64,000 nucleotides of DNA, taken from Candidatus Doudnabacteria bacterium (lineage in GTDB: Bacteria > Patescibacteriota > Doudnabacteria > UBA920). The DNA is taken from the NCBI GenBank assembly GCA_031291995.1, contig JARLHZ010000025.1, positions 25,174-89,173 on the forward strand, read 5' to 3'. The number at the start of each line of letters is the position of its first letter. The stretch's first letter is position 1. The position numbers and the translations under genes are program-made. This document shows positions 2,951-60,010 of this stretch, one piece after another. The notes beneath the pieces are model-generated. The model searched no databases, was not told the DNA's origin, and worked only from the letters and a program-made list of their open reading frames with translations.

Positions 2951-3135
2951 AGTTTAAGGAGGATTCACAGCAATTATTTGCGGCCTTAAGATTCATTAGC
3001 CGCGCAGTTTTTTAAAGTTCTCCTCAAAAAAACGGCCGAGATCCATTCCCGACCTACCGAACTTCCGTCCCCCCGGCGGCAATTCGGTCTTTTTTTTGTT
3101 TGCCGACGATGTTATGATATAAGTCTAACTGGTTT

Positions 3136-5256
3136 TTGTGTCATCCCGCATTGAAAAATTGTATGTCCAAATTCAAACTTCAATCCAAATTCCAACCGGC
3201 GGGAGACCAGCCCGCGGCTATTGAGGGGTTATTAAAATCCCTCAAGGCCAAACGCCGCTACCAAACCCTGCTGGGTGTTACGGGAAGCGGTAAGACTTTT
3301 ACTATGGCCAATATTATAGAGAAAATCCAAAAACCAACGCTCATAATCAGCCATAATAAAACCCTGGCCGCGCAACTGGCCGCGGAATTCCAGGAGTTTT
3401 TTCCGGACAACGCGGTCCACTATTTTGTATCTTACTACGATTATTACCAGCCCGAAGCCTATATCCCCCGCTCCGACACATATATTGAAAAAGATACCCA
3501 AATTAACGAAGAAATAGACCGGTTAAGGAACGCGGCCACGCAATCGCTTTTGTCGCGAAAGGACGTGCTGATTGTGGCTTCGGTGTCCTGCATTTACGGT
3601 TTAGGCAATCCGGCCAATTATTTGGAGCTGTCGCTGGCCATAAAAAAAGGACAGAGCTTAAAACGCGACAAATTGCTCAGGCGGCTGACTGATTTGCAAT
3701 TCCACCGCAACGACATCGACCTGCAGCGCGGTACCTTCCGTGTCCACGGCGACGTGCTGGAAATTATTTTATCTTCAGAAGACACGATTATCCGCATGGA
3801 TTTCTTTGGCGACGTACTGGAAAAAATCGAACGGCTGGACGCGGTGTCCGGCCACAAAATTGAGGAGCTGGATGAATTTATGATTTTCCCGGCCAAGCAT
3901 TTTGTCACTCCCGAGGACAAACTAAAAGAAGCGGAAGAAAACATCCGTCTGGAACTTATAGACCGGCTCAAGGAGCTAAAGTCACAGGGCAAAGTTTTAG
4001 AGGCCGCCCGTTTGGAACAGCGCACCAATTTTGATTTGGAAATGTTGACCAATACCGGTTTTGTGGCCGGCATAGAAAACTATTCCCGGGTATTGGAAGG
4101 CCGCGAGCCGGGCAGTCCGCCTTCCACGCTTATTGATTACTTCCCCGATGATTTTTTGCTATTTTTGGACGAATCCCACCAAACGGTACCGCAAATTGGC
4201 GCCATGTACGAAGGCGACAAATCCCGCAAAACCACTTTGGTTGATTACGGTTTCCGTTTGCCCAGCGCGCTCGACAATCGCCCGTTAAAATTTAACGAAT
4301 TCGAAAAAAAGATCAATCAGGTAATTTTTGTTTCGGCCACGCCGGCGGAATTTGAAATAGAGCGAAGCTTGACGCAAAAAGACACCAAATTCGTGACCAA
4401 ATCCAAACGGACCGAAGCCGAGCAAAGCATTATAGACGCCCGGCCAAAATTAAAACAAATGGACCCGCCGTCCATTGTGGAGCAAATCATCCGCCCCACC
4501 GGACTTATTGACCCGACAATTGAAATAAAGCCGATTAAGAACCAGGTGGACGACTTAATAGAAAGAATTAAGGAACGGATTGCTAAACACCAGAGAGTAC
4601 TCGTAGCCACACTGACCAAACGCATGGCCGAAGAGCTGGCGGAATATTTGAAAGAGGACGGCATTAAAGTCCAGTACATGCATTCGGACGTGGATACTTT
4701 TGAACGTTTGGAAATTTTACGCGACCTCCGGCTGGGAGTTTACGATGTTTTGGTGGGCATTAACCTGCTGCGCGAAGGTTTGGATCTCCCGGAAGTCTCT
4801 CTGGTTGCGATTTTGGACGCGGATAAAGAAGGCTTCCTGCGCTCCGAAACCTTCTTTATGCAAATGATGGGCCGCGCCGCTCGCCATTTGGAAGGTCATG
4901 TTGTTATGTACGCCGACAGAATTACCGGCTCCATGCAACGCGCGATTGACGAAACCAACCGCCGGCGCAAGCTCCAGGAAACCTATAACAAAAAACACGG
5001 CATTACGCCGCAAAGCATCCAAAAAGCCATTGGCGATTCGCGAATGGCCGGCAGCAAAGTGGAATTTGAAACAGCCGACGACGAACAAAAACGCCGCGAC
5101 CCCGGCAAAATGGACAAACAGGAACTAAAATTTTATCTGGACGAATTAAACGAGCAAATGGACCTGGCCTCAAAAAACCTGGAATTCGAGATCGCGGCAA
5201 AAATACGCGACAGGATTGAAGAAATAAAAAAAATAAATAAACTAAAAAGTCGATAA
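3136..5256 (+). CDS. uvrB: Excinuclease ABC subunit B
   Basis: 706 aa with Walker A GVTGSGKT, helicase motifs and a C-terminal UvrB/UvrC interaction helix ([17 protein letters not shown]). Confidence 0.95.
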
Positions 5257-5266
5257 ACGACAAAAC

Positions 5267-5306
5267 AAAGAGCAGGATTCTAGCGGCCGCTAGAATCCTG
5301 CTCTTT
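5267..5306. terminator. Perfect 40-nt palindrome, bidirectional terminator between convergent uvrB and the trmB-like gene
   Basis: aaagagcaggattctagcggccgctagaatcctgctcttt, flanked by T and A runs. Confidence 0.7.
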
Positions 5307-5315
5307 GTTTTCAGG

Positions 5316-9914: not shown

Positions 9915-10994
9915 TTATTTTTTATTAATTAAATTAACTACGAGTTTAACCATAACATCCTTCTGCACGGGATCGCTTTCGGCGACTAGTAAAGTTAAAG
10001 CGGCTAAGGTATTATCATTAATTTTGCGATCCCCTGTTTTGATGCTGTAAAGGGCGTTGTTCTGCACCAAATAGACCATAAACACCAACGCGCCAATCCT
10101 TTTATTGCCGTCGGTAAACGGATGGTCTTTGACCAAAAAATAGAGCAGATGCGCCGCTTTTTCTTCCATAGACGGATACAGCGGCTTGCCTTCGTAAGTC
10201 TGGTTAATATTGCCGAGTACAGCTTTAAACTTTTCGCCGACTTCCTGGCCAAACAACCCGCCCGCCTCCTGTTTTAACGACAAGCGTTTTTTAAATACCG
10301 TAATATATTTTTGTAAGTTCTGGTACTCGAGTGGCGCGGGAGAACGTCTAGAAACGCCGTCAATTTCCAGCTCGCCTTTATCGTATTTATTTAATAGCGC
10401 CCAAGTGTGCGCATAATCGGTAATTATCTTAAGCAAATCTTTTTCATACCCCTGCGCGCGCCGGTTTTCCAAAACATTCTGGAACAGCACCGTTGTCTGT
10501 GCCAGCTCCTTCATTTGCAAATCATGCTGTTCCTTTAGCCGATTCTGATTTACCGCGTAACCTTTAATTAAATAGTCCCGTAATCTCTGGGTGGCCCAAA
10601 TACGGAATTGGGTGCCGCGTTTGGATTTAATCCGATAGCCGACGGAAATTATTACATCAAGATTATAATAAATATTTGGCTTAAACAAGGCAATTCCAAT
10701 ATTATTGGAACTCCCTTGTTTAAGGGTAGTTTTGGTTTCGTCCAGCTCGTTTTCCTTATAAATTTGGCCAATATGAAAGGATATTGTCCTAAAATCTTTT
10801 TGGAACAATTCTCCCATCTGCTTTTGGGTAAGCCAGACCGTTTCACCATCCATTTGAACCTGTAATTCCGGCCCTTCTGGAGCTTTGTAAATAATAATCT
10901 CGCCTTTTTTTGCTTCTTCTGGCATAGAATCTCCCTTTTTTACCGTCGGAGGGGGAACCACCTCTGGCGGAAAGCTTTTATGTATTTTTTGCAT
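9915..10994 (-). CDS. RhuM-family N-terminal domain fused to a Doc/Fic-type (death-on-curing) toxin domain
   Basis: N-terminal GETVWLTQKQMGELF...NLDVIISVGYRIKSKRGTQFRIWATQRL is RhuM-like. The C-terminus carries HPFTDGNKRIG, the Doc variant of the Fic motif. Confidence 0.7.
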   Translation of the reverse strand: MQKIHKSFPPEVVPPPTVKKGDSMPEEAKKGEIIIYKAPEGPELQVQMDGETVWLTQKQMGELFQKDFRTISFHIGQIYKENELDETKTTLKQGSSNNIGIALFKPNIYYNLDVIISVGYRIKSKRGTQFRIWATQRLRDYLIKGYAVNQNRLKEQHDLQMKELAQTTVLFQNVLENRRAQGYEKDLLKIITDYAHTWALLNKYDKGELEIDGVSRRSPAPLEYQNLQKYITVFKKRLSLKQEAGGLFGQEVGEKFKAVLGNINQTYEGKPLYPSMEEKAAHLLYFLVKDHPFTDGNKRIGALVFMVYLVQNNALYSIKTGDRKINDNTLAALTLLVAESDPVQKDVMVKLVVNLINKK

Positions 10995-12354: not shown

Positions 12355-13020
12355 TTATATGTCAAATTCCTTTAATCGCTCTCTGGTTTCCGTAATCGTC
12401 ATTTCGGTAATTTGCTCCGGCTTTATAGCGCAACAGGCAAAAATTTGTTGTTCAATGTGCCGCAGAGCGTTCTCAAATGCCAGCCTTTTTTGTTCACTGC
12501 CCCATTCCTGGTGCCGGTGGGCGTATCTGGCGCGCAAATCGTCAAATCTGCCTTCCAAACTTACCACCCCGCACGGACTGACGCGGCTGTCGCAATAAGC
12601 GCAAATTTTTTTGCCAAAATCATGGCCGGCGGAATTTTCAACCGCAGTTTCAAAACCAATTGCGTCTATCAGCTCAAGTTTTCTGGGGTTCACGCCTAAC
12701 TCACGCGCAATTTTTAAACTGGCCGCATGTTCATCCGCTCCATATTTTTTACCGTATTGATCTTTTACCTTCTGCCAAAAATTTACGTCAATGTCTTTAT
12801 TTATCACCAAATGGCTATTGCTTAAATCAAACTTCAAAATATTCCCCATATCATGCAGCAAGCACACGGCCACTATATCGTATCGGTTAAGGGTTAAGGA
12901 TGAAGGATTAGGGATATTATCAATTATCACATCCGCCACCGCCGCGACCCTCAGTTGGTGTTCCGCGAGCTGTGGCATTATCTGATATTTTTTATAAACC
13001 TGTAAAATTTTCATATTCAC
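12355..13020 (-). CDS. HD-domain phosphohydrolase (YfbR-like 5'-deoxynucleotidase family)
   Basis: H..RVA (AEHQLRVAAVADVI) and LLHDMGN motifs. Cys-rich C-terminal half. Confidence 0.55.
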   Translation of the reverse strand: MNMKILQVYKKYQIMPQLAEHQLRVAAVADVIIDNIPNPSSLTLNRYDIVAVCLLHDMGNILKFDLSNSHLVINKDIDVNFWQKVKDQYGKKYGADEHAASLKIARELGVNPRKLELIDAIGFETAVENSAGHDFGKKICAYCDSRVSPCGVVSLEGRFDDLRARYAHRHQEWGSEQKRLAFENALRHIEQQIFACCAIKPEQITEMTITETRERLKEFDI

Positions 13021-14065: not shown

Positions 14066-16951
14066 TCAATTTTGCTCAATTGGCTTCATCTCCCCCCAAT
14101 TGTCCCCAACTTTGGCTTCCACCTTTACCGGAACTGATAATTTAATAGCATTTTCCATCAATGGAATGAGTTTCTTGACCCACGTCTCCACTTTGTCTTC
14201 GGACACCTCAAACACCAATTCGTCGTGCACTTGCAAAAGCATCCGTATTTCCGGCCTCTCCGAGGGCAACCCTCGGAAAACCCTATGGATATTGATCATT
14301 GCGACTTTTATTACGTCGGCGGCTAACGACTGGATGGGAAAATTCACGGCCGCGCGTTCGGCGGCGGCACGAATAAAGAATTGGGAAGATTTGATTTCCG
14401 GAAATTTGCGCATGCGGCCAAGCTCGTTTTTTACAAACCCTTCCTGGTTGACCTGGAGTTTTATCTGTTCTATATATTGTTCCACTGCGGGATACGCCGC
14501 GAAGTATTTGGCAATAAATTCCTTGGCTTCGGCGCGGGAGACTTCGCCAATCCTGGACGACAACCCAAAACTGGACAGCCCGTATAAAATTCCAAAATTT
14601 ATGGTCTTGGCGTCGCGGCGCATATCCGGGGTAATTTTATCCGCGGCCACCCCAAAAATTTCCATGGCTGTTTTGCTGTGAATGTCCTCGCCGTTCTTAA
14701 ACACCTCCAGCATCTTTTTGTCTTTGGCCAAATGCGCCACAATCCTCAGCTCAATTTGGCTATAATCAATCGATAAAAGTTTATACCCCTTTTCCGCCAC
14801 AAACGCCTGCCGAACTTTGCTGCCTAGCCCTTCCCCGCGCACCGGAATATTCTGCAAATTTGGATCAATCGATGATAATCTACCCGTTGCCGCAATCGTC
14901 TGATTGTAATTAGTATGTATTCGTCCGGTTTTTTTATTTACCAGTTCCGGCAATGTTAACAAATAAGTAGACTGCAGTTTGGAAAGTTCCCGGTATTCCA
15001 AAATTTTATCTATGACCGGATGCTGGCCCTTCATTTTTTCCAGTTCCCCTGCCGCGGTACTTAAGCCGGTTTTGGTTTTACGATTTGCTATCGGCTCCAG
15101 CTTCATCCGCTCAAATAAAACTTCCTTCATCTGCTTGGGAGAGTTTAAATTAAACTCCTCGCCCGTAAGTTTATAAATTTTGCTTTCCAGTTCCTTAATG
15201 TCTATTTCCGCCTCGGCCGATAATTTATTCAAAAACTTGCTGTCCAATTTAATGCCATTTAACTCCATAGCGGCCAAAACTTCCACCAGCGGCATTTCTA
15301 TATCGTAAAAAACTTTTTCCAGGCCTTCGGTTTTTAATTGCGGCTCAAAAATCTCCTTAAGCCTCAGCGTCATATCCACGTCTTCACAGCAATACCAGCT
15401 AACTTTTGCCGGCTCAACCTTATCCATAGTTATCTGGTTTTTCCCCTTGCCAATTAACTCCTCGATGGGCTGCATCTGATAGCCCAACTCATTAAAGGCC
15501 AAGGCGTCAAGCCCATGCTGGCGGGTAGCCGCGTTAAGAAGATAGGAGGCAATCATGGAGTCAAAAGAGATAGTGGACAGTGGATAGTGGCCAGTGGTCA
15601 GTATTTCCAGGTCGTACTTTATATTGTGGCCGATTTTTTTGATTTTTGGATCAGCTAAAATATTTTTTAATTCCGCTGACGATTCCAGAAGCGCCGCCAG
15701 CACATAATAAGCCTCGCCGGGTTTAACGCACAAACCCACGCCGACTAATTTGGCGTCCATGGTATCCAGACTCGTAGTTTCGGTATCTATAACCAGCTCT
15801 TTGACCGATGATAGTTTTTTTATGAGTGCTAATAGTTTGTCGTCAGTATCAACAAACTGATAATCTTGTTTGCCGATTGAAGACACAACCCCCTCCCCTC
15901 GCTTCGCCCCGTACCATCCGGTACCGGGCTTCGCAGGGTACTCCTCCTCGGACAAGGAGGAGAGACTCCGCCCTGGTCCGGAATTTAAGAGCACTCGCGG
16001 AGCTTCCCCTCCTTGCTGAGGAGGGGTGTCCGCGTTAGCGGACGGGGTGGTGCCCGTCTTCGGCAATTTGCTAATCAAGCTCCTAAACTCCAGCTCCTGA
16101 AAAAGTTTTACCACAACCGATAAATGTCCGGCGTCTAAATCGTATTTTGGAATATCAATTTCCAGCGGCACATTACAATCAATTACAGAAAGTTTATATG
16201 ACATCCTAGCCTGATCTTCCTGCGCCTTCAGCAACTCCAAAATCCGGGATTTTACCCTATTACCTGTTGTCTGTTCGCTAATCGCTTTATAAAGATTATC
16301 CAGCGATCCAAATTCCTTAATAAGTTCCCCTGCCGTCTTTTCGCCAATTCCTTTTACCCCCGGAATATTATCGGACGGATCACCTCGAAGAGACTTATAG
16401 TCCACCATCTGGTCAGGATTCAGCCCGTAACGCGCCCTAACTGCCTTGGCGTCGTAAATTACCACATCCGTAATTCCTTTGCGCATGGTATAAACTTTTA
16501 TTACGTGGTTAACCAGCTGTAAAGTATCCAAGTCGCCTGTGACAATAATGACTTCCGCTTCCGGATTTAACTTATGAAGCTTCATGGCCAAAGTTCCAAG
16601 GCAGTCGTCCGCCTCAAACCCCTGCTTTTCAAAAATCTGAATATTCAACGCGCGCACCACTTCCTTAACTCGCGGGATTTGGTCGTAAAGTTCCTGGTCG
16701 GCCTTGACCCGCGTCCCCTTATAGTCCTTATATTGTTCATGCCGAAACGTCGGGCCGGCCAAATCAAAAGTACAGGCAATGTGGGTGGGTTTGATGTCGG
16801 CAATGGCTTTAAGTAAAATCATGGTAAAACCATAAACCGCGTTAGTCTGCTCTCCGGATTTGGTATTTAGTACCGGAATAGCGTGATAGCCGCGGTGAAT
16901 TAGCGCGTTACCATCGACTAACATGTAGCGATTTTGAGTCGGTTTAACCAT
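14066..16951 (-). CDS. polA: DNA polymerase I (5'-3' exonuclease, 3'-5' exonuclease-like and polymerase domains)
   Basis: Polymerase motifs DYSQIELR, RRDAKTINFGILYG and QVHDELVFE, with the 5' nuclease N-terminus MVKPTQNRYMLVDGNALIHRGYHA. Start chosen at the internal Met; the ORF track extends to 17119. Contains a GC-rich low-complexity insert (see findings). Confidence 0.9.
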   Translation of the reverse strand: MVKPTQNRYMLVDGNALIHRGYHAIPVLNTKSGEQTNAVYGFTMILLKAIADIKPTHIACTFDLAGPTFRHEQYKDYKGTRVKADQELYDQIPRVKEVVRALNIQIFEKQGFEADDCLGTLAMKLHKLNPEAEVIIVTGDLDTLQLVNHVIKVYTMRKGITDVVIYDAKAVRARYGLNPDQMVDYKSLRGDPSDNIPGVKGIGEKTAGELIKEFGSLDNLYKAISEQTTGNRVKSRILELLKAQEDQARMSYKLSVIDCNVPLEIDIPKYDLDAGHLSVVVKLFQELEFRSLISKLPKTGTTPSANADTPPQQGGEAPRVLLNSGPGRSLSSLSEEEYPAKPGTGWYGAKRGEGVVSSIGKQDYQFVDTDDKLLALIKKLSSVKELVIDTETTSLDTMDAKLVGVGLCVKPGEAYYVLAALLESSAELKNILADPKIKKIGHNIKYDLEILTTGHYPLSTISFDSMIASYLLNAATRQHGLDALAFNELGYQMQPIEELIGKGKNQITMDKVEPAKVSWYCCEDVDMTLRLKEIFEPQLKTEGLEKVFYDIEMPLVEVLAAMELNGIKLDSKFLNKLSAEAEIDIKELESKIYKLTGEEFNLNSPKQMKEVLFERMKLEPIANRKTKTGLSTAAGELEKMKGQHPVIDKILEYRELSKLQSTYLLTLPELVNKKTGRIHTNYNQTIAATGRLSSIDPNLQNIPVRGEGLGSKVRQAFVAEKGYKLLSIDYSQIELRIVAHLAKDKKMLEVFKNGEDIHSKTAMEIFGVAADKITPDMRRDAKTINFGILYGLSSFGLSSRIGEVSRAEAKEFIAKYFAAYPAVEQYIEQIKLQVNQEGFVKNELGRMRKFPEIKSSQFFIRAAAERAAVNFPIQSLAADVIKVAMINIHRVFRGLPSERPEIRMLLQVHDELVFEVSEDKVETWVKKLIPLMENAIKLSVPVKVEAKVGDNWGEMKPIEQN

Positions 16952-34640: not shown

Positions 34641-34710
34641 ATAATTGATAATTTATAGTTGATAACAACCGTTCGCGTCCACAGAGTTATAAGTTATCAA
34701 TTATAAATTA
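34641..34710. repeat. Family-B palindromic element, empty hairpin (arms AATTTATAGTTGATAAC / GTTATCAATTATAAATT, about 27-nt loop)
   Basis: Read directly from the sequence. It shares the arm AATTTATAATTGATAAC with the copies at 38690, 39080 and 49613. Confidence 0.7.
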
Positions 34711-34861
34711 TGAGTTATTTCCACGATTTATTATTATAATCCATTTTACTTCCAGCGTCAATCGGGTTAAAATAGAATTATTGCAGACATTAATTGATTT
34801 TTGGATATTGGGGTATTTGCAAAACGGCGTTCAATCGATCAATATCCCAATCCAGCCGCCA

Positions 34862-37696: not shown

Positions 37697-37783
37697 TTTA
37701 CGAAGTACGAACGAGAACGAACTTACGAAGAGTAAGTACCCGTTCGTTCGTAAGTTCGTAAAATTTCGTACTTAGTAAAATTA
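37694..37783. repeat. Family-A palindromic element (terminal arms TTACGAAGTACGAA / TTCGTACTT(A)GTAA), copy 1, immediately after the ruvB stop codon
   Basis: gtagtttacgaagtacgaacgagaacgaacttacgaag...cgttcgttcgtaagttcgtaaaatttcgtacttagtaaaatt. A second copy lies at 58542-58617. Confidence 0.75.
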
Positions 37784-37995: not shown

Positions 37996-38139
37996 AGGGT
38001 TATGGTTGTAGGTTATAGAATGTGGTAGGGAAAATGGTTGTTGGGCTTAGGGCTATGAGCGCTAACGGCCTACTTTCCAAGGCCTATGACCAATCTACTT
38101 TCCATAACTTACAACTAATAACTAACTCCCCACCCAACT

Positions 38140-38688
38140 ATGTCCAAAAAACTTTTCCCCAGCCAGCTGGATGACGAACAAATTTTTCTTGTCGTACGCG
38201 AACACTGGGTCCACCTGACGCTAAAACTCATTGTCTGGGGATTCTTTGCTTTTTTGTTGGTGCTGTTTGAACAGGCGGGCCAAGCCAATATCCCCCAGCT
38301 GTTTTTGGGCACTTGGGGCGAAGTAACCCTGTTGTTTATTCAAATCTACACCTTAATGCTGATTATGGCGCTATTTTTGATTGTGGTTATATATTATTTA
38401 AACATTCAAATTATTACCAACCTCCGGGTTGTGGATGTCAGCCAGGAAGGACTGTTTTCCCACACGATTTCGGAACTTCATATAGATAAAATTGAAGACG
38501 CCACGAGCAAAACCAGCGGGCTGCTCGGCACAATTTTTAATTACGGCGATGTGTTCGTGCAAACCGCCGGCACGGTGGAACGGTTCGATTTTCACAACGT
38601 CCCCAACCCGGCGGCTATTGAAAAAATGGTATTGGATCTATACGAAAAAAATTCCAATTTCGCTAAAGACGCCGGGGAGAATAACTGA
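38140..38688 (+). CDS. Membrane protein with a bacterial PH (bPH_2/DUF304, YdbS/YdbT-like) domain
   Basis: Two N-terminal TM helices followed by a roughly 90-aa domain (VVDVSQEGLFSHTISELHIDKIEDATSKTSGLLGTIFNYGDVFVQTAG). Confidence 0.5.
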   Translation: MSKKLFPSQLDDEQIFLVVREHWVHLTLKLIVWGFFAFLLVLFEQAGQANIPQLFLGTWGEVTLLFIQIYTLMLIMALFLIVVIYYLNIQIITNLRVVDVSQEGLFSHTISELHIDKIEDATSKTSGLLGTIFNYGDVFVQTAGTVERFDFHNVPNPAAIEKMVLDLYEKNSNFAKDAGENN

Positions 38689-38723
38689 TAATTTATAATT
38701 GATAACTAATAACTAACCCCCTT

Positions 38724-39087
38724 ATGGCGTTTAGATTCCAATCTTGGCAAGTTTATAAGGATGCACGGACGTTCAGGAAAGAAATTAATGCCATACTCAA
38801 AACATATCCGCCAGCGGAACGATATGTACTTATAGACCAAATAAAGCGGGCGATGTTGTCGGTAATGCTACAAATTGCCGAAGGATCCGAACGAAAGACC
38901 GAAAAAGATAAAAATCTTTTCATAAACCGATCGTTAACCTCCCTTTTTCGAGATAGTCGCCTGTTTAGATTGTGCGGTTGATGACAAATACATCACCGAA
39001 GATCAATATAAAGACCTGACGCAAAAAGCCGAAAATATAGCCAAACAACTTAGAGGTTTTGAGAAGTATATCCGCAAAAGTTATTGA
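38724..39087 (+). pseudogene. Four-helix-bundle protein (23S rRNA intervening-sequence protein family, TIGR02436-like), frameshifted at the T5 run 38944-38948
   Basis: N-terminal MAFRFQSWQVYKDARTFRKEI...LQIAEGSERKTEKDKNLFINRSLTSL parallels the intact paralogue at 56650-57027. Removing one T restores ...EIVACLDCAVDDKYITEDQYKDLTQKAENIAKQLRGFEKYIRKSY*. It could be a homopolymer sequencing error. Confidence 0.6.
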
Positions 39088-39113
39088 TTATAAATTATTA
39101 ATTATAAGTTATC

Positions 39114-39551
39114 ATGACTACCATAGCAATCTCCGGAGGTTTTGACCCCATTCACATCGGCCATGTGGAAATGATGAAGGAAGCCAAACAGCTCGGTGAC
39201 AGGCTGGTGGTGATAGTGAATAACGACAACTGGCTGAAAAAGAAAAAAGGCTTTGCCTTTATGAGCGAAGCCGAGCGTAGATATATAGTCGAGGCCATCC
39301 GCTATGTTGATGAAGTTATTTTGACCGGCCACCCCCAAAACCCGACCGACATGTCAGTATGCGCGGAACTGGAAAAACTCAAACCCGATATTTTTGCCAA
39401 CGGCGGCGACCGCCACCCCGAAGGCGACCCGGTTCCCGAAGTCGAACTCTGCAAAAAACTCGGCATTCAAATGCTCTACAACATCGGCAAAAGCGGCAAA
39501 ATCCAAAGTTCCAGCGAACTGGTCAAGCGTGTCAGGGAAATAAAGAAATAA
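39114..39551 (+). CDS. Cytidylyl/adenylyl-transferase-like nucleotidyltransferase (TagD / RfaE-domain-II family)
   Basis: ISGGFDPIHIGHVEMM carries the H-x-G-H motif. 145 aa. Confidence 0.65.
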   Translation: MTTIAISGGFDPIHIGHVEMMKEAKQLGDRLVVIVNNDNWLKKKKGFAFMSEAERRYIVEAIRYVDEVILTGHPQNPTDMSVCAELEKLKPDIFANGGDRHPEGDPVPEVELCKKLGIQMLYNIGKSGKIQSSSELVKRVREIKK

Positions 39552-39556
39552 AGGTT

Positions 39557-39576
39557 CCCCGCCGCAAGCAGCGGGG
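39557..39576 (+). terminator. GC hairpin after the nucleotidyltransferase gene
   Basis: ccccgccgcaagcagcgggg. A second hairpin plus T-run lies at 39754-39790 (ccggtatggataagtgcgaatccataccg-acttttttg). Confidence 0.45.
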
Positions 39577-40087
39577 TATTACTGCAAGGAACAGCTGCAT
39601 CTTCGCGGCAAGCCGCTAGGTATTGAACCTTTCTTTCCGCCAAAGGCGGATCCGCCTCCGGCGGAAGTTCCCTGCCTGGCGGCAGGCAGGCCTCGGCTCG
39701 CTTGTCCATTGAAAGACAAAGGACAGACTCGCCTACGTCGCGAATAAATAGCGCCGGTATGGATAAGTGCGAATCCATACCGACTTTTTTGATGGCGTTC
39801 ATTTTAGGATCCAGCGAACGCCAATGACGGGGCGGAACGTTTGGCGGTCAACGAGCGGAGCAAACCACAGCTTAAATGCAGTACGCGGGATAGAAAGCTC
39901 CACTTTCGGTCCGTTGCACTTAAAGCGCTCGGAAAAGCTGCCTAGCCCTAAAGTTTTGCTCATCCGGTAATTAGTTTCCACCTTGTACCAAAAGCCGCTG
40001 CCACCGTCCTCAAACACCGCGAGGCCAGAAAGTTTGGCCTTGCCCACCCAAATAAGGACGAATTAAGCTATTGACATACAATATAAT

Positions 40088-40384
40088 ATGTCATATCATA
40101 TTAACATGAAGTCTTTTAATTGGAGTAATGATAAAAATCTTTGGCTGCAAGATATAAGAAAAGTGTGCTTTGAAGATGCTGTTAGAGAGATTACTGAACA
40201 TAGAGTACTCGATAACTTTAAACACCCAAACCAAAAAACATATCCTAATCAAAAAATTTTTATTATTGCGATAAACGGATATGCCTGCAGGGTTCCCTAC
40301 ATAGAAAGTGAAGAGACTATATTTTTCAAAACAATAATTCCAAGCAGACAAGCCACTAAAAAATATCTTGTCAATAAACCTTAA
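40088..40384 (+). CDS. brnT: BrnT-family (DUF497) ribonuclease toxin
   Basis: FNWSNDKNLWLQDIRKVCFEDAVREI...IFIIAINGYACRVPYIESEETIFFKTIIPSRQATKKY follows the BrnT pattern. Upstream TTGACA-17-TATCAT. Confidence 0.65.
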   Translation: MSYHINMKSFNWSNDKNLWLQDIRKVCFEDAVREITEHRVLDNFKHPNQKTYPNQKIFIIAINGYACRVPYIESEETIFFKTIIPSRQATKKYLVNKP

Positions 40385-40388
40385 AAAT

Positions 40389-40745
40389 ATGAACAATATA
40401 GATTTTGATAACCTACAATTAGACAAGGAAGAGAGGGAGATAGAAGAAGCCTTCGAAAAGGGCAGTGTTGAACGTGTTCTAAATTATGAGGAAGAAAAAG
40501 TAAAACTTGAAGCCGCGGCCCGCGCCACCTTGGAAAAAACCAAAAATATCAACATTCGTATTTCCCAAGGCGACTTATACAACATTAAGACTAAAGCTGC
40601 TGAGCAGGGCGTCCCCTACCAAACCCTTATTTCATCACTTATCCACCAATTCTCCAACAACCGGATTAACTATAACATTCTGCGCGAGCCCGGGAAGCCC
40701 TATCGCACATTTAATTCCAAGCCAACCAAAAAGAGCGGCGCCTAA
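40389..40745 (+). CDS. brnA: BrnA-type antitoxin
   Basis: C-terminal ISQGDLYNIKTKAAEQGVPYQTLISSLIHQF is the BrnA/COG3514 signature. Start chosen just after the brnT stop; the ORF track begins at 40368. Confidence 0.6.
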   Translation: MNNIDFDNLQLDKEEREIEEAFEKGSVERVLNYEEEKVKLEAAARATLEKTKNINIRISQGDLYNIKTKAAEQGVPYQTLISSLIHQFSNNRINYNILREPGKPYRTFNSKPTKKSGA

Positions 40746-40760
40746 ACGCCGCTCTTTTTT
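40732..40760 (+). terminator. Rho-independent terminator overlapping the brnA stop
   Basis: agagcggcg-cctaaa-cgccgctcttttttg. Confidence 0.7.
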
Positions 40761-48893: not shown

Positions 48894-49613
48894 ATGACGT
48901 TCATTTCCGTTTACAACGCAATAATCTATCACCCCCTTCTGAACCTGTTGGTGTTTTTTTACAATATCGTTCCAGGCCACGACATTGGCGTGGTTATTAT
49001 TTTAATTACCATTTTTATCCGGCTGTTATTGGCTCCGAGTTTTGGCAAATCCATCCGGAGCCAAAAAGCCATGAATGATTTACAGCCCAAATTGAATGCC
49101 GTGCGGGAAAAATATAAGGACGATAAAGAAGGCCAGGCCAAAGCCATGATGGAACTGTATAAAGAAAATAAAATAAACCCTTTTTCTTCCTGCTTGCCCC
49201 TGTTAATCCAGTTGCCGATTTTGATCGGCCTGTACCAGGCATTCCGCGTGGCGTTAAATCCCGCCATTGGCATGGCCGAGCGGTTGAGCGGGCTTTACCC
49301 GTTTGTCTATCGTCCTGAATCCATTAGTCCTTTTTTCTTTAAGGTTATCAATTTATCCCAACCGAGCGCGGTGTTGGCAATTATGGCCGGCTTGGCCCAG
49401 TTTTGGCAGTCTAAAATCATGATGCCCCAGGGACCGGGACAGGATACCACCATGAAAGCCATGAGCATGCAAACTACTTATGTATTGCCTGTAATCAGCA
49501 TGTTTATCGCCTGGCGTCTGCCTGCCGGATTGCCGCTTTATTGGGTGGTTACCACTTTATTCGCCGTGGGCCAACAGTATTATGTTATGAGAAAACCGAA
49601 AGTTAATCAATAA
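48894..49613 (+). CDS. yidC: YidC/Oxa1-family membrane protein insertase (short form)
   Basis: 239 aa with five TM helices. The PLLIQLPILIGLYQA and GLPLYWVV motifs are typical of the YidC core. Confidence 0.85.
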   Translation: MTFISVYNAIIYHPLLNLLVFFYNIVPGHDIGVVIILITIFIRLLLAPSFGKSIRSQKAMNDLQPKLNAVREKYKDDKEGQAKAMMELYKENKINPFSSCLPLLIQLPILIGLYQAFRVALNPAIGMAERLSGLYPFVYRPESISPFFFKVINLSQPSAVLAIMAGLAQFWQSKIMMPQGPGQDTTMKAMSMQTTYVLPVISMFIAWRLPAGLPLYWVVTTLFAVGQQYYVMRKPKVNQ

Positions 49614-49666
49614 TTTATAATTGATAACTTATAACACCGCTAGGTTACTTGTTATCAATTATAAAG
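49613..49666. repeat. Family-B palindromic element, empty hairpin (arms AATTTATAATTGATAAC / GTTATCAATTATAAAG, 21-nt loop containing GCTAGG), immediately after the yidC stop
   Basis: Read directly. The arm is identical to the one at 38690-38706. Confidence 0.75.
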
Positions 49667-49682
49667 TATAAATTCCAAATCC

Positions 49683-56093: not shown

Positions 56094-56615
56094 TTATGCC
56101 TTTAACCGGAGGTCTTTTTGATATTTATGGCCGGCGCACATTGCAATGGCTACCGCGTCCGCCGCGTCGTCCGGCTTGGGTGGGTTTTTGAGTTTAAAAG
56201 TTTTTTGAACAATGTACTGAACCTGTTTTTTTTCCGCTTTGCCGTAACCGCAAATAAAGCTCTTGACCTGAAGCGGGGTAAATTCCAGAATCGGAACTTT
56301 ATGCTGTTGGCAAACCAGCAGGACGGCTCCCCTGGCCTGGGAAACGGTCATAACCGTTTTTTGGTTGGTGGTAAAAAACAATTTTTCAATCCCCACGGCA
56401 TCCGGCCTGAATTTTTTTAGGAGTTGGATTATGTCATCGGCCAAAATGTTTAAGCGTTCCGCGTCTGTCAGATTTTTGTCCGTCGTAATTACGCCAAAAT
56501 CCACCAGCTCGGGCTGGTTTTTTCCGCCGGAGGCGGACCCGCCTCCGGCGGGAGTCATTTCTATTACTCCGAATCCGGTAGTTGCCGTACCCGGGTCGAT
56601 GCCTAGTATAATCAT
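56094..56615 (-). CDS. ruvC: Crossover junction endodeoxyribonuclease RuvC
   Basis: MIILGIDPGTATTGFGVIE plus the RNase H-like catalytic residues (DPG..., ...E..., ...HAD-type motif AADAVAIAMC). Confidence 0.9.
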   Translation of the reverse strand: MIILGIDPGTATTGFGVIEMTPAGGGSASGGKNQPELVDFGVITTDKNLTDAERLNILADDIIQLLKKFRPDAVGIEKLFFTTNQKTVMTVSQARGAVLLVCQQHKVPILEFTPLQVKSFICGYGKAEKKQVQYIVQKTFKLKNPPKPDDAADAVAIAMCAGHKYQKDLRLKA

Positions 56616-56634
56616 AAGTTAACAATAACTATTA

Positions 56635-57052
56635 CTATAACGATAACTGCTAGGATTCGGGGTGTTCAATAGCATTCTTGAGATGGTTTTCTAAACCCCG
56701 GAGTTGCTTAGCTAAATTTTCGATTTGGTTGTAGAAGTATTTATATTTATCTTCATCAATATAAACATCATCAAGCGCGCAGTCAAAGCAGGCCATAACT
56801 TCATCGAGCGAGGTTAGGGCCCGATTTATAAAAACAATCTTGTTATTTTCTGTCCTGCGGTTAGAACCTTCGGCAATCGCTAACACAACTGAGAGAGCCG
56901 CCCTATCGGTTTGACTTATAAGAATATATTTTTCGTCCGATGGCCAGGTTTTGGTTGTTTGTTTAACCTCTTTTCTAAAAGTTCTCGCGTCTTTATAAAC
57001 CTGCCAACCATGGAATTTAAAAGACATAGGGAAGTTATGGTTATCGTTATAG
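56635..57052. repeat. Perfect 13-bp inverted repeats (CTATAACGATAAC / GTTATCGTTATAG) bracketing the four-helix-bundle gene, an IVS-like cassette
   Basis: Arms at 56635-56647 and 57040-57052, each 2-12 nt from the ORF ends. Confidence 0.75.
56650..57027 (-). CDS. Four-helix-bundle protein (23S rRNA intervening-sequence protein family)
   Basis: 125 aa (MSFKFHGWQVYKDARTFRKEV...LAIAEGSNRRTENNKIVFINRALTSLDEVMACFDCALDDVYIDEDKY...). Paralogue of 38724-39087. Confidence 0.7.
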   Translation of the reverse strand: MSFKFHGWQVYKDARTFRKEVKQTTKTWPSDEKYILISQTDRAALSVVLAIAEGSNRRTENNKIVFINRALTSLDEVMACFDCALDDVYIDEDKYKYFYNQIENLAKQLRGLENHLKNAIEHPES

Positions 57053-57056
57053 TCAG

Positions 57057-57773
57057 CTAAAGGTTTGCAGAAGTGTGTACCGCTATAACGTCCTCGTCAT
57101 TTTCCAGGGCCGCGAATAGAGTGTCAACTTTAGGCTTCTGGTCTTCGGTTAAGTCCGTTCCCTGCGACGATTCCTTAATAATTTCCGCCTGGGCGATTTT
57201 GGCTCCGGCTTTTTCCAGAGCAGTTTTAATTTTGTGCAAATCCTGGGGCAGTGTGTAAACCTCCAAACCTTCTTCGGACTCCCGGACATCGTCCGCTCCG
57301 GCGTCTATGGCGGCCATTTCGATATCCGAAATATTTTTATCGCGCTCGACTAAAATTTGTCCCTTGGTGCTAAATTGCCACGCTACGCTCCCCTGGGCTC
57401 CTATACTGCCGCCGTGTTCGGAAAAAATTTTGCGGACGTTGTTAAAAGTGCGGTTGCTGTTGTCCGTGGCCGCTTCCACCAAAAATGCCGTGCCGAACGG
57501 CCCGTAGCCTTCGTAGGCGACTTCTTTGACCGCGGCCGCCCCCGCTCCCAGCGCGTTTTTTATGGCCCGTTCCACGTTTTCGTTGGGCATGCCCTGGGCT
57601 TTGGCGCTGTCGATTATCGTTTTTAATTTAAAATTGGCCGACGGGTCGCCGCTGCTTCCTTCTTTTACGGCTATGGAGATTTTTTTGGAGTACTTGGAAA
57701 ACAGCAGTCCCTTTTTTTGGTCAAGGACGCCTTTGGTTCGTTTAATTTGCGACCACTTGGAATGTCCGGACAT
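57057..57773 (-). CDS. yebC: YebC/PmpR-family transcriptional regulator
   Basis: MSGHSKWSQIKRTKG... is the near-universal YebC N-terminus. Confidence 0.9.
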   Translation of the reverse strand: MSGHSKWSQIKRTKGVLDQKKGLLFSKYSKKISIAVKEGSSGDPSANFKLKTIIDSAKAQGMPNENVERAIKNALGAGAAAVKEVAYEGYGPFGTAFLVEAATDNSNRTFNNVRKIFSEHGGSIGAQGSVAWQFSTKGQILVERDKNISDIEMAAIDAGADDVRESEEGLEVYTLPQDLHKIKTALEKAGAKIAQAEIIKESSQGTDLTEDQKPKVDTLFAALENDEDVIAVHTSANL

Positions 57774-57818
57774 AGGTTCATTGACAAAATTAAATAAAAT
57801 TGACCAGAATTGACATAA

Positions 57819-58538
57819 TTATTTAAATGAGATCATTACTGTAAATTCCCCTTTTATGGAGGGTTTGTCTTTGAGTGCGTCAGATACTTGGGTTGGGGTA
57901 CCACGGATGAATTCTTCATGCATTTTAGTCAGCTCGCGGGCAATAACGACCTGTGAAGAAGGGAACGCGTTGCTTATGTAGCTGAGCGTCTTAAGAATTC
58001 TTTCGGGGGACTCATAAAAAATCGCGGTGGCTTCGGCATTGGCCGCAAACTGTAAGGCCTCGACCGTTTTGCTGACGGTTTTTTGTAAAAAACCCAAAAA
58101 CAAAAACTTGTCAGTAGGCAGGCCGGAGGCAGACAGGGCGGCAATGGCGGCATTCGGCCCCGGGAATGGGATGACTTGCACGTTTTCTTTTACGCATTCG
58201 CGAACCAATCTAAATCCGGGATCGCTAATCCCGGGAGTTCCGGCGTCGGTAATCAGCGCGCCGTCTTGTTTGCTTAAGCGGCGGGCGAGTTCTTTGACAA
58301 TCTGCTGTTCGTTATGTTCCGCGAATTGGACGACTTCTTTTTTTGCTGTCATCCCAACTGAGTCATTAGATGCAATTACCGAAGCGGTTCGCACGGAAAG
58401 TCCGTCTATATATTGCAGCAGCCGCCGCGAATAGCCCGGATTTTCCGCAATTACAAAATCGCACCGCTTGAGCGTCTCAATCGCCCGCAGTGTAATATCC
58501 CCCATGTTTCCGATTGGTGTTGCGACTATGTAAAGCAT
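57819..58538 (-). CDS. rsmI: 16S rRNA (cytidine1402-2'-O)-methyltransferase RsmI
   Basis: MLYIVATPIGNMGDITLRAIETLKRCDFVIAE is the tetrapyrrole-methylase-fold RsmI N-terminus. Confidence 0.85.
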   Translation of the reverse strand: MLYIVATPIGNMGDITLRAIETLKRCDFVIAENPGYSRRLLQYIDGLSVRTASVIASNDSVGMTAKKEVVQFAEHNEQQIVKELARRLSKQDGALITDAGTPGISDPGFRLVRECVKENVQVIPFPGPNAAIAALSASGLPTDKFLFLGFLQKTVSKTVEALQFAANAEATAIFYESPERILKTLSYISNAFPSSQVVIARELTKMHEEFIRGTPTQVSDALKDKPSIKGEFTVMISFK

Positions 58539-58541
58539 ATC

Positions 58542-58617
58542 GTAGTTTACGAAGTACGAATTTTTACGAACATACGAAGGGTTCGTAAGTTCGTAACCGT
58601 TCGTACTTCGTAAAATT
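58542..58617. repeat. Family-A palindromic element, copy 2 (perfect 14-bp arms TTACGAAGTACGAA / TTCGTACTTCGTAA)
   Basis: gtagtttacgaagtacgaatttttacgaacatacgaagggttcgtaagttcgtaaccgttcgtacttcgtaaaattt. It lies 4 nt upstream of the rsmI start on the opposite strand. Confidence 0.75.
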
Positions 58618-59275: not shown

Positions 59276-59710
59276 TTAGAGCAGCTCAATGGTTTCTATA
59301 TCCGGGATTTTTTTATGAGCGCGCGCGTCGGCGCTTAATAATGGAATATTCAGAATTTTTGACAATGCGGCATACGAAGCGTCGTAAAAAGTTAAATTAT
59401 GACGAGTCATTATTTCTACAGCAGTGGAAGTTAACAGCGTATCAGGCGGGAAGATTTGTATTCGGGAATTGTATAAATCCTCTATGGCCTCGGTAATTTC
59501 ACCAGCCGAAAATTTTTTACCTTTTCCAAGCGCGTTGACCACTTCGTAAATCAGCAAGTCCGGCGCGAATAGCTCTGCGCTCCCCGCAAAGCACCTGGCT
59601 AATAAATTTTCTGCTTGGGTGGTTCCAGCCTCCTCGCTAAATAATTTTACCGCTATCGAGGCGTCTATAACTACCCGCTTGATGTGTTCAGTGGTTATTT
59701 CTGTCGGCAT
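59276..59710 (-). CDS. vapC: PIN-domain toxin (VapC-like)
   Basis: VVIDASIAVKLF...DLLIYEVVNAL...LTFYDASYAALS is the PIN acidic-residue pattern. Confidence 0.7.
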   Translation of the reverse strand: MPTEITTEHIKRVVIDASIAVKLFSEEAGTTQAENLLARCFAGSAELFAPDLLIYEVVNALGKGKKFSAGEITEAIEDLYNSRIQIFPPDTLLTSTAVEIMTRHNLTFYDASYAALSKILNIPLLSADARAHKKIPDIETIELL

Positions 59711-59963
59711 AAATGAATTTGCTAAGATTTTGTTTTTTGCCGCTTTTGCGCAATTTGGCGAGGCTTTCTTTTATTTCTCCCCAAACAGGCCCGCTATACG
59801 AGGCTTTAGCCTTTAATTTTTCGTAACTTTCGGCGTCTATTAACACGGCTTCTTTTTTTAAACGCGCGCCCAAATACACAGGCCTCCCGGTTTTTTTGGC
59901 CTGATTTATGAGTTGTCTGTAATTCCGCTGTATTTGGCGTATTGATATAATTTGTTCGTCCAT
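59688..59963 (-). CDS. Phd/YefM-type antitoxin
   Basis: MDEQIISIRQIQRNYRQLINQAKKTGRPVYL...AVLIDAESYEKL is the Phd/YefM N-terminal pattern. Overlaps the PIN gene. Confidence 0.65.
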   Translation of the reverse strand: MDEQIISIRQIQRNYRQLINQAKKTGRPVYLGARLKKEAVLIDAESYEKLKAKASYSGPVWGEIKESLAKLRKSGKKQNLSKFIYADRNNH

Positions 59964-60010
59964 GATTGTATTATATTTGACATACAATTGTATGTCAAAT
60001 ATTAAATATT

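Follow-up and report, generated by a model that had tools for sequence, protein, structure and literature searches.

Organization of the locus

In the stretch of Candidatus Doudnabacteria DNA analysed here (64,000 nt of contig JARLHZ010000025.1, called the window, to which all coordinates refer; L-numbers designate comparison loci and contigs), the spacer between a bPH-like gene and a cytidylyltransferase gene is occupied by an element of ~430 bp, cassette 1 (38681-39112). It encloses an open reading frame (ORF) for a four-helix-bundle (4HB) protein of the PF05635/TIGR02436 family, co-directional with both neighbours and bordered by two inverted arrays of short tandem repeats.

The arms of cassette 1 (Table 1) form an inverted repeat of 34 nt with 85% complementarity, each side being an array of four to five tandem 7-nt units. 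The 5′ arm starts with a TAACTGA unit (38682-38688), contains the stop codon of the bPH-like gene (38686-38688) and lies within a region of lag-7 periodicity (38680-38718); 12 such regions exist in the window and none in each of 10 shuffles. The 3′ arm covers the final codons of the 4HB gene (K-S-Y-stop) and stops 1 nt short of the cytidylyltransferase ATG (39114). The stem has five mismatches, of which three (positions 7, 14 and 21) are spaced by 7 bases and coincide with the variable position of the unit. In the minimum free energy fold of 38672-39122 the two arms pair, closing a long-range stem of ~22 bp. The 5′ arm is conserved in the orthologous locus L004, and a remnant of it is found in L184. 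A promoter scan gave no plus-strand promoter-like site within the 5′ arm, and an Rfam scan of the window returned no family and no rRNA.

The original prediction, made by reading the sequence, held that the 4HB gene is bracketed by arms which recur elsewhere as gene-less hairpins. All its coordinates for the gene, the arms and these hairpins were reproduced, and both the inverted repeat and the counts of the 17-mer AATTTATAATTGATAAC agree with this description. The 17-mer occurs exactly at 38690-38706, 34693-34709 (minus strand) and 49612-49628, and with one or two mismatches at 34650, 39080-39096 (minus strand) and 49651 (minus strand). With up to three mismatches allowed there are 16 matches in the window versus 0.56 expected, a count that none of 100 shuffles reaches.

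The enclosed gene and its frameshift

The 4HB gene of cassette 1 (copy 1) is interrupted by a 1-nt insertion: frame 0 terminates at 38981 after 85 aa, the repaired product being 120 aa long. Once repaired, it scores 95.8 bits with PF05635 (cut-off 33.8) and 83.3 with TIGR02436 (cut-off 24). Its conserved core reads DQIKRAMLSVMLQIAEGSER and contains the family core Q..RA..S....IAEG; residues Q39, S46, A52 and E53 are invariant in an alignment of 34 sequences. Profile comparison with the PDB retrieves the pentameric 4HB structure 2GSC (E = 2.8e-17) and 2RLD (E = 7.6e-7). Among the 122 homologues found, with identity up to 89%, nearly all measure 116-122 aa. Profile scans detected no transposase domain in the enclosed protein, including no HUH/Y1 signature, and scans with defence-system and phage libraries gave only a weak match to Avd and a spurious coiled-coil match.

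The frameshift had been attributed to a single extra T in a T5 run, with the suggestion that this copy may be decaying, and both points hold. An independent assembly, Logan contig L001 (reported from 6 samples), matches the window at 100% identity over 38023-39575 (1553 bases), the T5 run included. At the same site L004 and L007 have in-frame 4HB orthologues, and beyond the shift the sequence retains 84-87% identity with its nearest homologues. On these sequence comparisons the frameshift is real and recent. Copy 1, whose reading frame is no longer intact, is best read as a gene inherited at the junction of the bPH-like and cytidylyltransferase genes and then recently inactivated by a 1-nt insertion.

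The same architecture in other genomes

A scan of a genome collection gave 52 loci encoding 4HB relatives, in Patescibacteria, Omnitrophota, WOR-1 and Peregrinibacteria. At nearly all of them tandem short repeats precede the ATG and their reverse complement follows the stop codon, with units that differ from locus to locus (nnATAAC, nTTGACA, GAAGAAC, CTAAC, TTAAC, CCAAC and others). In the flanks of the 52 loci the median lag-7 identity is 0.47, whereas other lags, and 827 control ORFs, give 0.27 (P ~1e-20); the median arm-arm duplex energy is −26.9 versus −16.7 kcal/mol. The repeat unit follows the 4HB protein tree; within one unit clade the proteins are only 52-71% identical and the contexts diverse. 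The neighbours of the cassettes belong to more than 70 distinct families, and 35 cassettes are oriented in sense to both neighbours, against one that is antisense to both.

This organization extends to rRNA genes. The 16S rRNA insertions of L055, L057 and L059 carry a PF05635 gene together with repeat-array arms, all three in sense orientation, and the 23S rRNA intervening sequence (IVS) of Azospirillum (L196) contains a 4HB gene with units GACAGAG/GACGGAT. The analogy with rRNA IVSs drawn in the original prediction is thus substantiated by a shared protein family and by arms of the same construction. Inverted repeat-array arms around a 4HB gene are present, moreover, on finished plasmids of cultured strains, in Riemerella, Geminocystis, Stanieria and Gemmatirosa as well as in Nostoc edaphicum. 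On plasmid pNe_5 of the latter (L187, 1400-1890), the gene occupies the nrdB-nrdA spacer with (GTAGGGA)8 on one side and (TCCCTAC)5 on the other, a cassette that may link the heptamers of cyanobacteria resembling short tandemly repeated repetitive (STRR) sequences to the 4HB gene family. In Anabaena sp. 90 (pANA02, L189) and Pseudanabaena galeata (pPg_01, L191), 4HB genes are found between cas6 and cas4 of CRISPR-cas operons.

Arm pairs were also detected blindly in 0.9 Mb, by lag-7 periodicity combined with shared reverse-complement 5-mers. The pairs fall into two classes, 58 with loops of at most 80 nt and 44 with loops of 320-460 nt, with about four in between, and the longer class mostly has a 4HB ORF inside. 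Eight pairs of cassette size lie apart from the query genes. In three of these, detected through the arms alone, the loop encodes a PF05635 protein; the other five are explained by neighbouring solo hairpins on either side of an ordinary small gene, or by an arm-to-arm gap. In 39 of 54 cases a solo hairpin and the cassette at its own locus have arm 6-mers in common, versus 31 expected from other loci; as low-complexity k-mers cross-match, this test has too little power to be of use. The cassette architecture is common to the 4HB protein family across phyla and to true 16S and 23S rRNA IVSs.

Dense runs of solo repeat-arm hairpins, up to six or more in a few kb, were noticed in L021 (6876-7210 and 11894-12989), L026 (11183-16635) and L043 (7535-10147); they often share their unit with a nearby 4HB cassette.

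Gene-less hairpins in the window

Two gene-less (solo) hairpins have ATAAC-type arms. The one at 34641-34718 (−25.2 kcal/mol, z = −5.8) separates a DHH-family gene on the minus strand from the divergent tsaE on the plus strand. A promoter-like site for the DHH gene (34761-34733, minus strand) lies upstream of the hairpin, which is therefore probably in the 5′ untranslated region (UTR) of this gene. The same junction in L007 is occupied by a hairpin built of another unit. In the second hairpin (49605-49674, z = −4.6) the yidC stop codon falls within the 5′ arm. At the orthologous yidC-jag junction, L012 has an unrelated hairpin and L014 has no hairpin. In a scan of metagenome contigs with the exact arm 17-mer, the matches listed were mostly chance AT-rich ones; among them only L102, the contig of L004, is related to the window, and two further solo hairpins were found, in L108 and L168. 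There, a 24-mer from the arm of 49605-49674 forms solo hairpins in unrelated contexts.

Three more hairpins belong to other or related arm families (Table 1). The two with TACGAA-repeat arms have z-scores of −5.6 (37697-37779) and −8.2 (58546-58614); a matching 4HB gene is absent from the window. The largest, of ~130 nt (38003-38135, −48.4 kcal/mol), fills the spacer between a 70-aa gene and the bPH-like gene that precedes cassette 1. We also noticed a hairpin of ~110 nt with TCAAAT-type arms (1716-1824, z = −4.95) filling the spacer between two minus-strand genes.

Because they are placed between the stop and start codons of co-directional genes (34641-34718 in a probable 5′ UTR), these hairpins should be transcribed. 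They do not seem to be ordinary intrinsic terminators: no repeat-arm hairpin is among the sites listed by a terminator scan of the window, which does list canonical terminators nearby, e.g. 40728-40759.

Table 1. Cassettes, arms and gene-less hairpins in the window.
Feature	Position	Strand	Description
Cassette 1, 5′ arm	38681-38714	+	tandem 7-nt units TAACTGA, TAATTTA, TAATTGA, TAACTAA, TAACT
Cassette 1, 4HB gene (copy 1)	38724-39087	+	PF05635/TIGR02436; 1-nt insertion in CTTTTTC, 38943-38949
Cassette 1, 3′ arm	39079-39112	+	AGTTATT, GATTATA, AATTATT, AATTATA, AGTTAT
Cassette 2	56618-57056	−	between yebC and ruvC; intact 125-aa 4HB gene, 56650-57027
Cassette 2, 5′ arm	~57031-57056	−	ATAAC-type; core 57040-57053
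Cassette 2, 3′ arm	~56618-56649	−	ATAAC-type; core 56634-56647
Solo hairpin	34641-34718		ATAAC-type; arms 34641-34666/34693-34718, 26-nt loop
Solo hairpin	49605-49674		ATAAC-type; arms 49605-49635/49644-49674; fills yidC-jag spacer
Solo hairpin	37697-37779	+	TACGAA-repeat arms; between ruvB and 70-aa gene
Solo hairpin	58546-58614	−	TACGAA-repeat arms; fills spacer upstream of TP_methylase gene
Related-family hairpin	38003-38135	+	GTTAT-type arm first, ATAAC-type arm second

Gain, loss and replacement at gene junctions

The original prediction proposed that relatives be compared for filled and empty hairpins. We compared the junction of cassette 1 in eight genomes, given here with the identity of their bPH-like protein to that of the window. 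It is filled in the window (with the frameshifted copy), in L004 (73%) and in L007 (60%). It is occupied by a solo hairpin of another family in L182 (82%; 126 nt) and L183 (78%; 76 nt), and is empty, with a spacer of 16-20 nt, in L184 (70%), L185 (68%) and L186 (65%). These three filled, two solo and three empty states are not nested on the tree of the two flanking proteins. L184, the sister of a filled genome, keeps TAACCGATAAATAATAATTGATA, homologous to the 5′ arm of the window and fused straight to the next start codon, and this remnant looks like a deletion scar.

Similar turnover is found upstream of the TP_methylase gene. L014 has there a filled cassette of another 4HB subfamily with 9-nt units, L012 a solo hairpin of which both arms align with the arms of the L014 cassette, and the window its TACGAA hairpin (58546-58614). 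The L182 hairpin (3107-3232) is homologous to L184 2375-2500 and to 38003-38135 of the window: hairpins of this type occupy the same junction in the window and L184, and a different one in L182. As a further observation, the TP_methylase-yebC spacer (57773-57819) contains one-sided GTCAATn repeats without a complementary partner; the same junction holds a second 4HB cassette in L013, and in L012 a 392-nt insert with a small ORF on the reverse strand.

Cassette 2 of the window has an intact gene (copy 2), 58% identical to copy 1 at the protein level and scoring 89.5 bits with PF05635 and 77.8 with TIGR02436; its arms pair in the predicted fold, closing a long-range stem. The yebC-ruvC junction is filled in all five genomes compared (window, L010, L012, L013 and L014). 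The window protein is only 56-60% identical to the four other copies, which are 70-80% identical among themselves. Since it is thus an outlier although the host proteins group the window with L012, the disagreement between the 4HB tree and the host tree suggests either that the copy was exchanged at a fixed site or that its evolution was strongly accelerated.

These alignments show that, in the course of evolution, gene junctions have acquired cassettes and hairpins, lost them and exchanged them for others. Hairpins and 4HB genes do co-occur in relatives, and the frameshifted copy, confirmed by an independent contig, has empty counterparts at its own junction. The proposal that a mobile cassette leaves solo hairpins behind stands in part. 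It agrees with the filled and empty states, with the L184 remnant and with the homologous arms of L014 and L012. On the other hand, both cassettes of the window occupy positions shared with relatives and are therefore not recent insertions; its two ATAAC solo hairpins were never seen filled in the relatives compared; and the arms of the L182 and L183 solo hairpins are of other families, so that simple gene loss from cassette 1 is not their origin.

Other repeats and small genes

Positions 39636-39664, 56523-56551 and 10943-10970 of the window carry copies of a GC-rich palindrome, TTCCGCCrrAGGCGGAyCCGCCTCCGGCGG. The copy at 56523-56551 is in frame inside ruvC (residues 22-31, PAGGGSASGG), and two independent Logan contigs end exactly at it; a similar palindrome is located in the loop of a junction hairpin in L183 (3075-3110). 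This sequence recalls palindromic elements that insert in coding regions. Tandem 7-nt repeats, such as CTGACTG x3 and AGTGGnC x4, exist inside long ORFs as well (1342-1371, 1438-1469, 1953-1990, 12880-12916 and 15568-15603).

Between two convergent genes, 5262-5311 is a perfect palindrome of 25+25 nt with A- and T-runs on its flanks, for which a bidirectional terminator is the simplest reading; within it, CCGCTAGAATCC is similar to a motif pointed out in the original prediction. The small gene pairs 40088-40745 and 59276-59987 are toxin-antitoxin-like: a Logan gene call reports a PhdYeFM antitoxin and a PIN protein for the latter, and 40368-40745 has a CopG-like match in its L004 orthologue.

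Discussion

We think it probable, with reservations, that the locus is an IVS-type cassette residing in a messenger RNA spacer instead of an rRNA gene. The cassette lies in sense between two co-directional housekeeping genes and should therefore be transcribed as part of their transcript. In this transcript the arms would pair into an imperfect stem of ~30 bp, which RNase III would cut as it does for rRNA IVSs, releasing the ORF RNA and separating the flanking messages. An element with such a cleavable stem would consequently be tolerated wherever the stem does no harm. For the intergenic cassettes we infer this excision by analogy with their rRNA counterparts. In addition, the conservation of the unit within protein clades suggests that the unit itself is recognized by something, possibly the 4HB pentamer.

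Several results weigh against this interpretation. Concerning cleavage, no RNase III signature motif or rnc gene was found in the window or in the fetched loci, which represent only parts of genomes. G:U pairs on the sense strand are not in excess over A:C mismatches in intergenic cassettes, the totals being 68 and 60 overall, compared with 15 and 2 in the three rRNA copies alone. Within a unit clade, pairing between the two arms of one element is hardly stronger than between arms combined from different elements, and compensatory co-evolution of the two arms is weak or absent (P = 0.016, 0.54, 0.015 and 0.17). The Nostoc cassette is antisense to the nrdAB operon, and that of Pseudanabaena (L191) is bordered by direct instead of inverted arrays, (AAAAGCT)12 upstream and (AAAAGCC)9 downstream. 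Concerning mobility, which is deduced from distribution only, no recombinase was identified and no target-site duplication is visible by eye at the arm ends, the spacers being too diverged to define these ends. Finally, the loops of the solo hairpins contain no ORF remnants, all loop-versus-ORF similarities being at chance level (P = 0.2-0.98). This applies to a GAATTC..GCAGT match between L012 and L014 and to the GCTAGG-T-C of the hairpin at 49613, which had been taken at first for the vestige of another cassette.

Some of these results would be accounted for if the arms were mainly protein-binding arrays, bound by the 4HB pentamer or a host factor as DNA or single-stranded RNA, with pairing a by-product of their inverted arrangement. 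Such arrays could serve in autoregulation, translation control or as a recombination mark, and this role, which we regard as possible without favouring it, is compatible with RNase III processing. Units conserved among proteins of 52-71% identity across many contexts, arms that do not clearly prefer their own partner, the missing G:U bias of intergenic copies, mismatches that fall on the variable position of the unit and the direct arrays of Pseudanabaena all agree with it. So does the proposal that TAACTGA direct repeats near start codons in other bacteria are regulator sites (PMC4679880), and likewise a genome nearly devoid of Shine-Dalgarno sequences: only 5 of the 53 likely genes in the window have a Shine-Dalgarno-like motif upstream, hence their translation initiation is largely independent of it. 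However, covariation of unit and protein clade is equally expected from co-inheritance within a cassette, and pairing is clearly selected in the rRNA copies, for which RNase III cleavage has been shown experimentally (PMC4990558). Solo hairpins also occur in 20-kb stretches without a cognate 4HB gene (L012), the rest of those genomes being unseen.

The direction of events could also be reversed, the hairpins being older, independent intergenic elements, like STRR or repetitive extragenic palindromic (REP) sequences, and the 4HB ORF a cargo that inserts in their loops, so that solo hairpins are targets not yet filled. This would fit the solo hairpins of several unrelated arm families at junctions, their loops free of ORF remnants, the two ATAAC hairpins of the window never filled in relatives, and the presence of different hairpins at one junction in different genomes. 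It is nevertheless rather unlikely, for two reasons: the L184 5′ arm joined alone to a start codon, in the sister of a filled genome, is deletion-like, and arm unit and protein clade travel together across contexts, which is hard to explain by entry into unrelated hairpins.

As for copy 1, the ribosome might bypass the frameshift by slipping +1 at CUU-UUU-C, with tRNA-Phe shifting from UUU onto UUC, and yield the full 120-aa protein. The slip would restore the family sequence ...SLFEIVAC... exactly, and past the shift there are no more stops and no excess divergence. Yet all 120 homologues listed are single-frame except the window's own truncated product, those of L004 and L007 included, no stimulatory element is evident, and a recent 1-nt insertion accounts for the same facts; we consider bypass improbable.

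That the whole pattern reflects chance AT-rich matches, assembly artefacts or terminators, with the frameshift a sequencing error, might be feared for an AT-rich, low-complexity region of a metagenome-assembled genome, but this reading is refuted by the shuffles (0 of 100 reaching the motif count), the fold z-scores (−4.6 to −8.2), the identical independent assembly, the finished plasmids of cultured strains and the terminator scan.

Taking the IVS-type cassette as our preferred reading, a more general and tentative proposal can be made, although we would not put it forward as the expected outcome. PF05635 proteins and short tandem-repeat arrays, mostly of 7 nt, might constitute one widespread class of mobile hairpins, of which rRNA IVSs are the subset that landed in rRNA. 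The pentamer might recognize four to six units of its own arms and so help to maintain or spread the element, and STRR and TAACTGA heptamers might be solo or one-armed remains. The origin of rRNA IVSs, the function of the encoded protein and the heptamer repeats of cyanobacteria and giant sulfur bacteria have been studied separately for decades; the present locus and its relatives suggest that these three questions belong together. Flanking inverted short-repeat arrays accompany the same 4HB family whether the host is an rRNA gene, an operon spacer or a CRISPR-cas operon, and gene-less forms turn over at junctions. This also matters for annotating the reduced genomes of the candidate phyla radiation (CPR), in which hairpins of this kind fill many of the spacers within operons and may govern the processing of polycistronic messages in organisms largely without Shine-Dalgarno sites.

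Comparison with known systems

Readings of the cassette as a terminator or as an element encoding Avd of diversity-generating retroelements (DGR) were rejected, on the terminator scan and on sub-cut-off scores, respectively; a REPtron is less likely, the enclosed protein having no transposase domain. With DGR Avd the enclosed protein shares a homologous four-helix-bundle fold, seen in weak matches to PF22296, NF033474 and phrog_3206, but the scores remain below the cut-offs (29.1 versus 80 for NF033474, 27.9 versus 40 for PF22296). No reverse transcriptase is present among the scanned neighbouring genes, which are housekeeping on both sides; template and variable repeats were not searched for. 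REPtrons, with their REP-associated tyrosine transposases (RAYT), and miniature inverted-repeat transposable elements (MITE) resemble the present system in that a small gene is bracketed by an inverted repeat and the repeat is scattered as gene-less intergenic hairpins. Solo copies in unrelated contexts are likewise present here. They differ from the present system in that the 4HB protein has no HUH/Y1 or transposase signature, the arms are short tandem arrays instead of a single palindrome, and no target-site duplication was seen by eye.

The closest likeness is with the rRNA IVSs of Leptospira, Coxiella burnetii and Alphaproteobacteria, which share with cassette 1 the PF05635 (S23p/IVP) protein, encoded by a sense ORF, and complementary borders that form a long stem around it. 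The 23S IVS of Coxiella has GACAGAT heptamers upstream of its ORF and a terminal stem of 28 bp within which RNase III cleaves (PMC4990558). This arrangement of tandem heptamers between the stem base and the ORF start is echoed by the five 7-nt units of the cassette 1 5′ arm. Distribution is sporadic in both cases, here with the filled, solo and empty states that are not nested. ORF decay, seen in the Coxiella IVS (PMC4990558), has its counterpart in copy 1, and ORF-less short forms are common to the two systems as well; PF05635 ORFs in CPR rRNA insertions, and short rRNA forms without ORF, are on record (PMC11270868). In contrast, the host transcript of the cassettes is a protein-coding operon spacer or a 5′ UTR and not an rRNA helix, and intergenic copies lack the G:U strand signal of the rRNA copies. 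Cassette 1 is thus not a strict rRNA IVS, since insertion into 16S or 23S rRNA defines these. In a full-text literature search of incomplete coverage we found nothing linking PF05635 genes outside rRNA to repeat-array arms, solo hairpins or STRR/TAACTGA repeats, nor any account of IVS-type cassettes outside rRNA that also have solo forms, though an earlier description may exist.

In Beggiatoaceae, cyanobacteria and Bacteroidetes, direct TAACTGA heptamers immediately precede start codons and have been proposed to be regulator binding sites (MacGregor 2015, PMC4679880). Like these and the STRR sequences, the arrays of the window are intergenic 7-nt tandem units ending a few nt before start codons in Shine-Dalgarno-poor genomes, and the 5′ arm of cassette 1 has a literal TAACTGA at its head. 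An STRR insertion into cyanobacterial RNase P RNA was reportedly described by Vioque in 1997. STRR and TAACTGA repeats are known as direct arrays, with no link to 4HB genes or hairpins, whereas those of the window come from the Patescibacteria, a phylum from which such repeats had no earlier report, and are arranged as inverted pairs that may or may not enclose a 4HB ORF.

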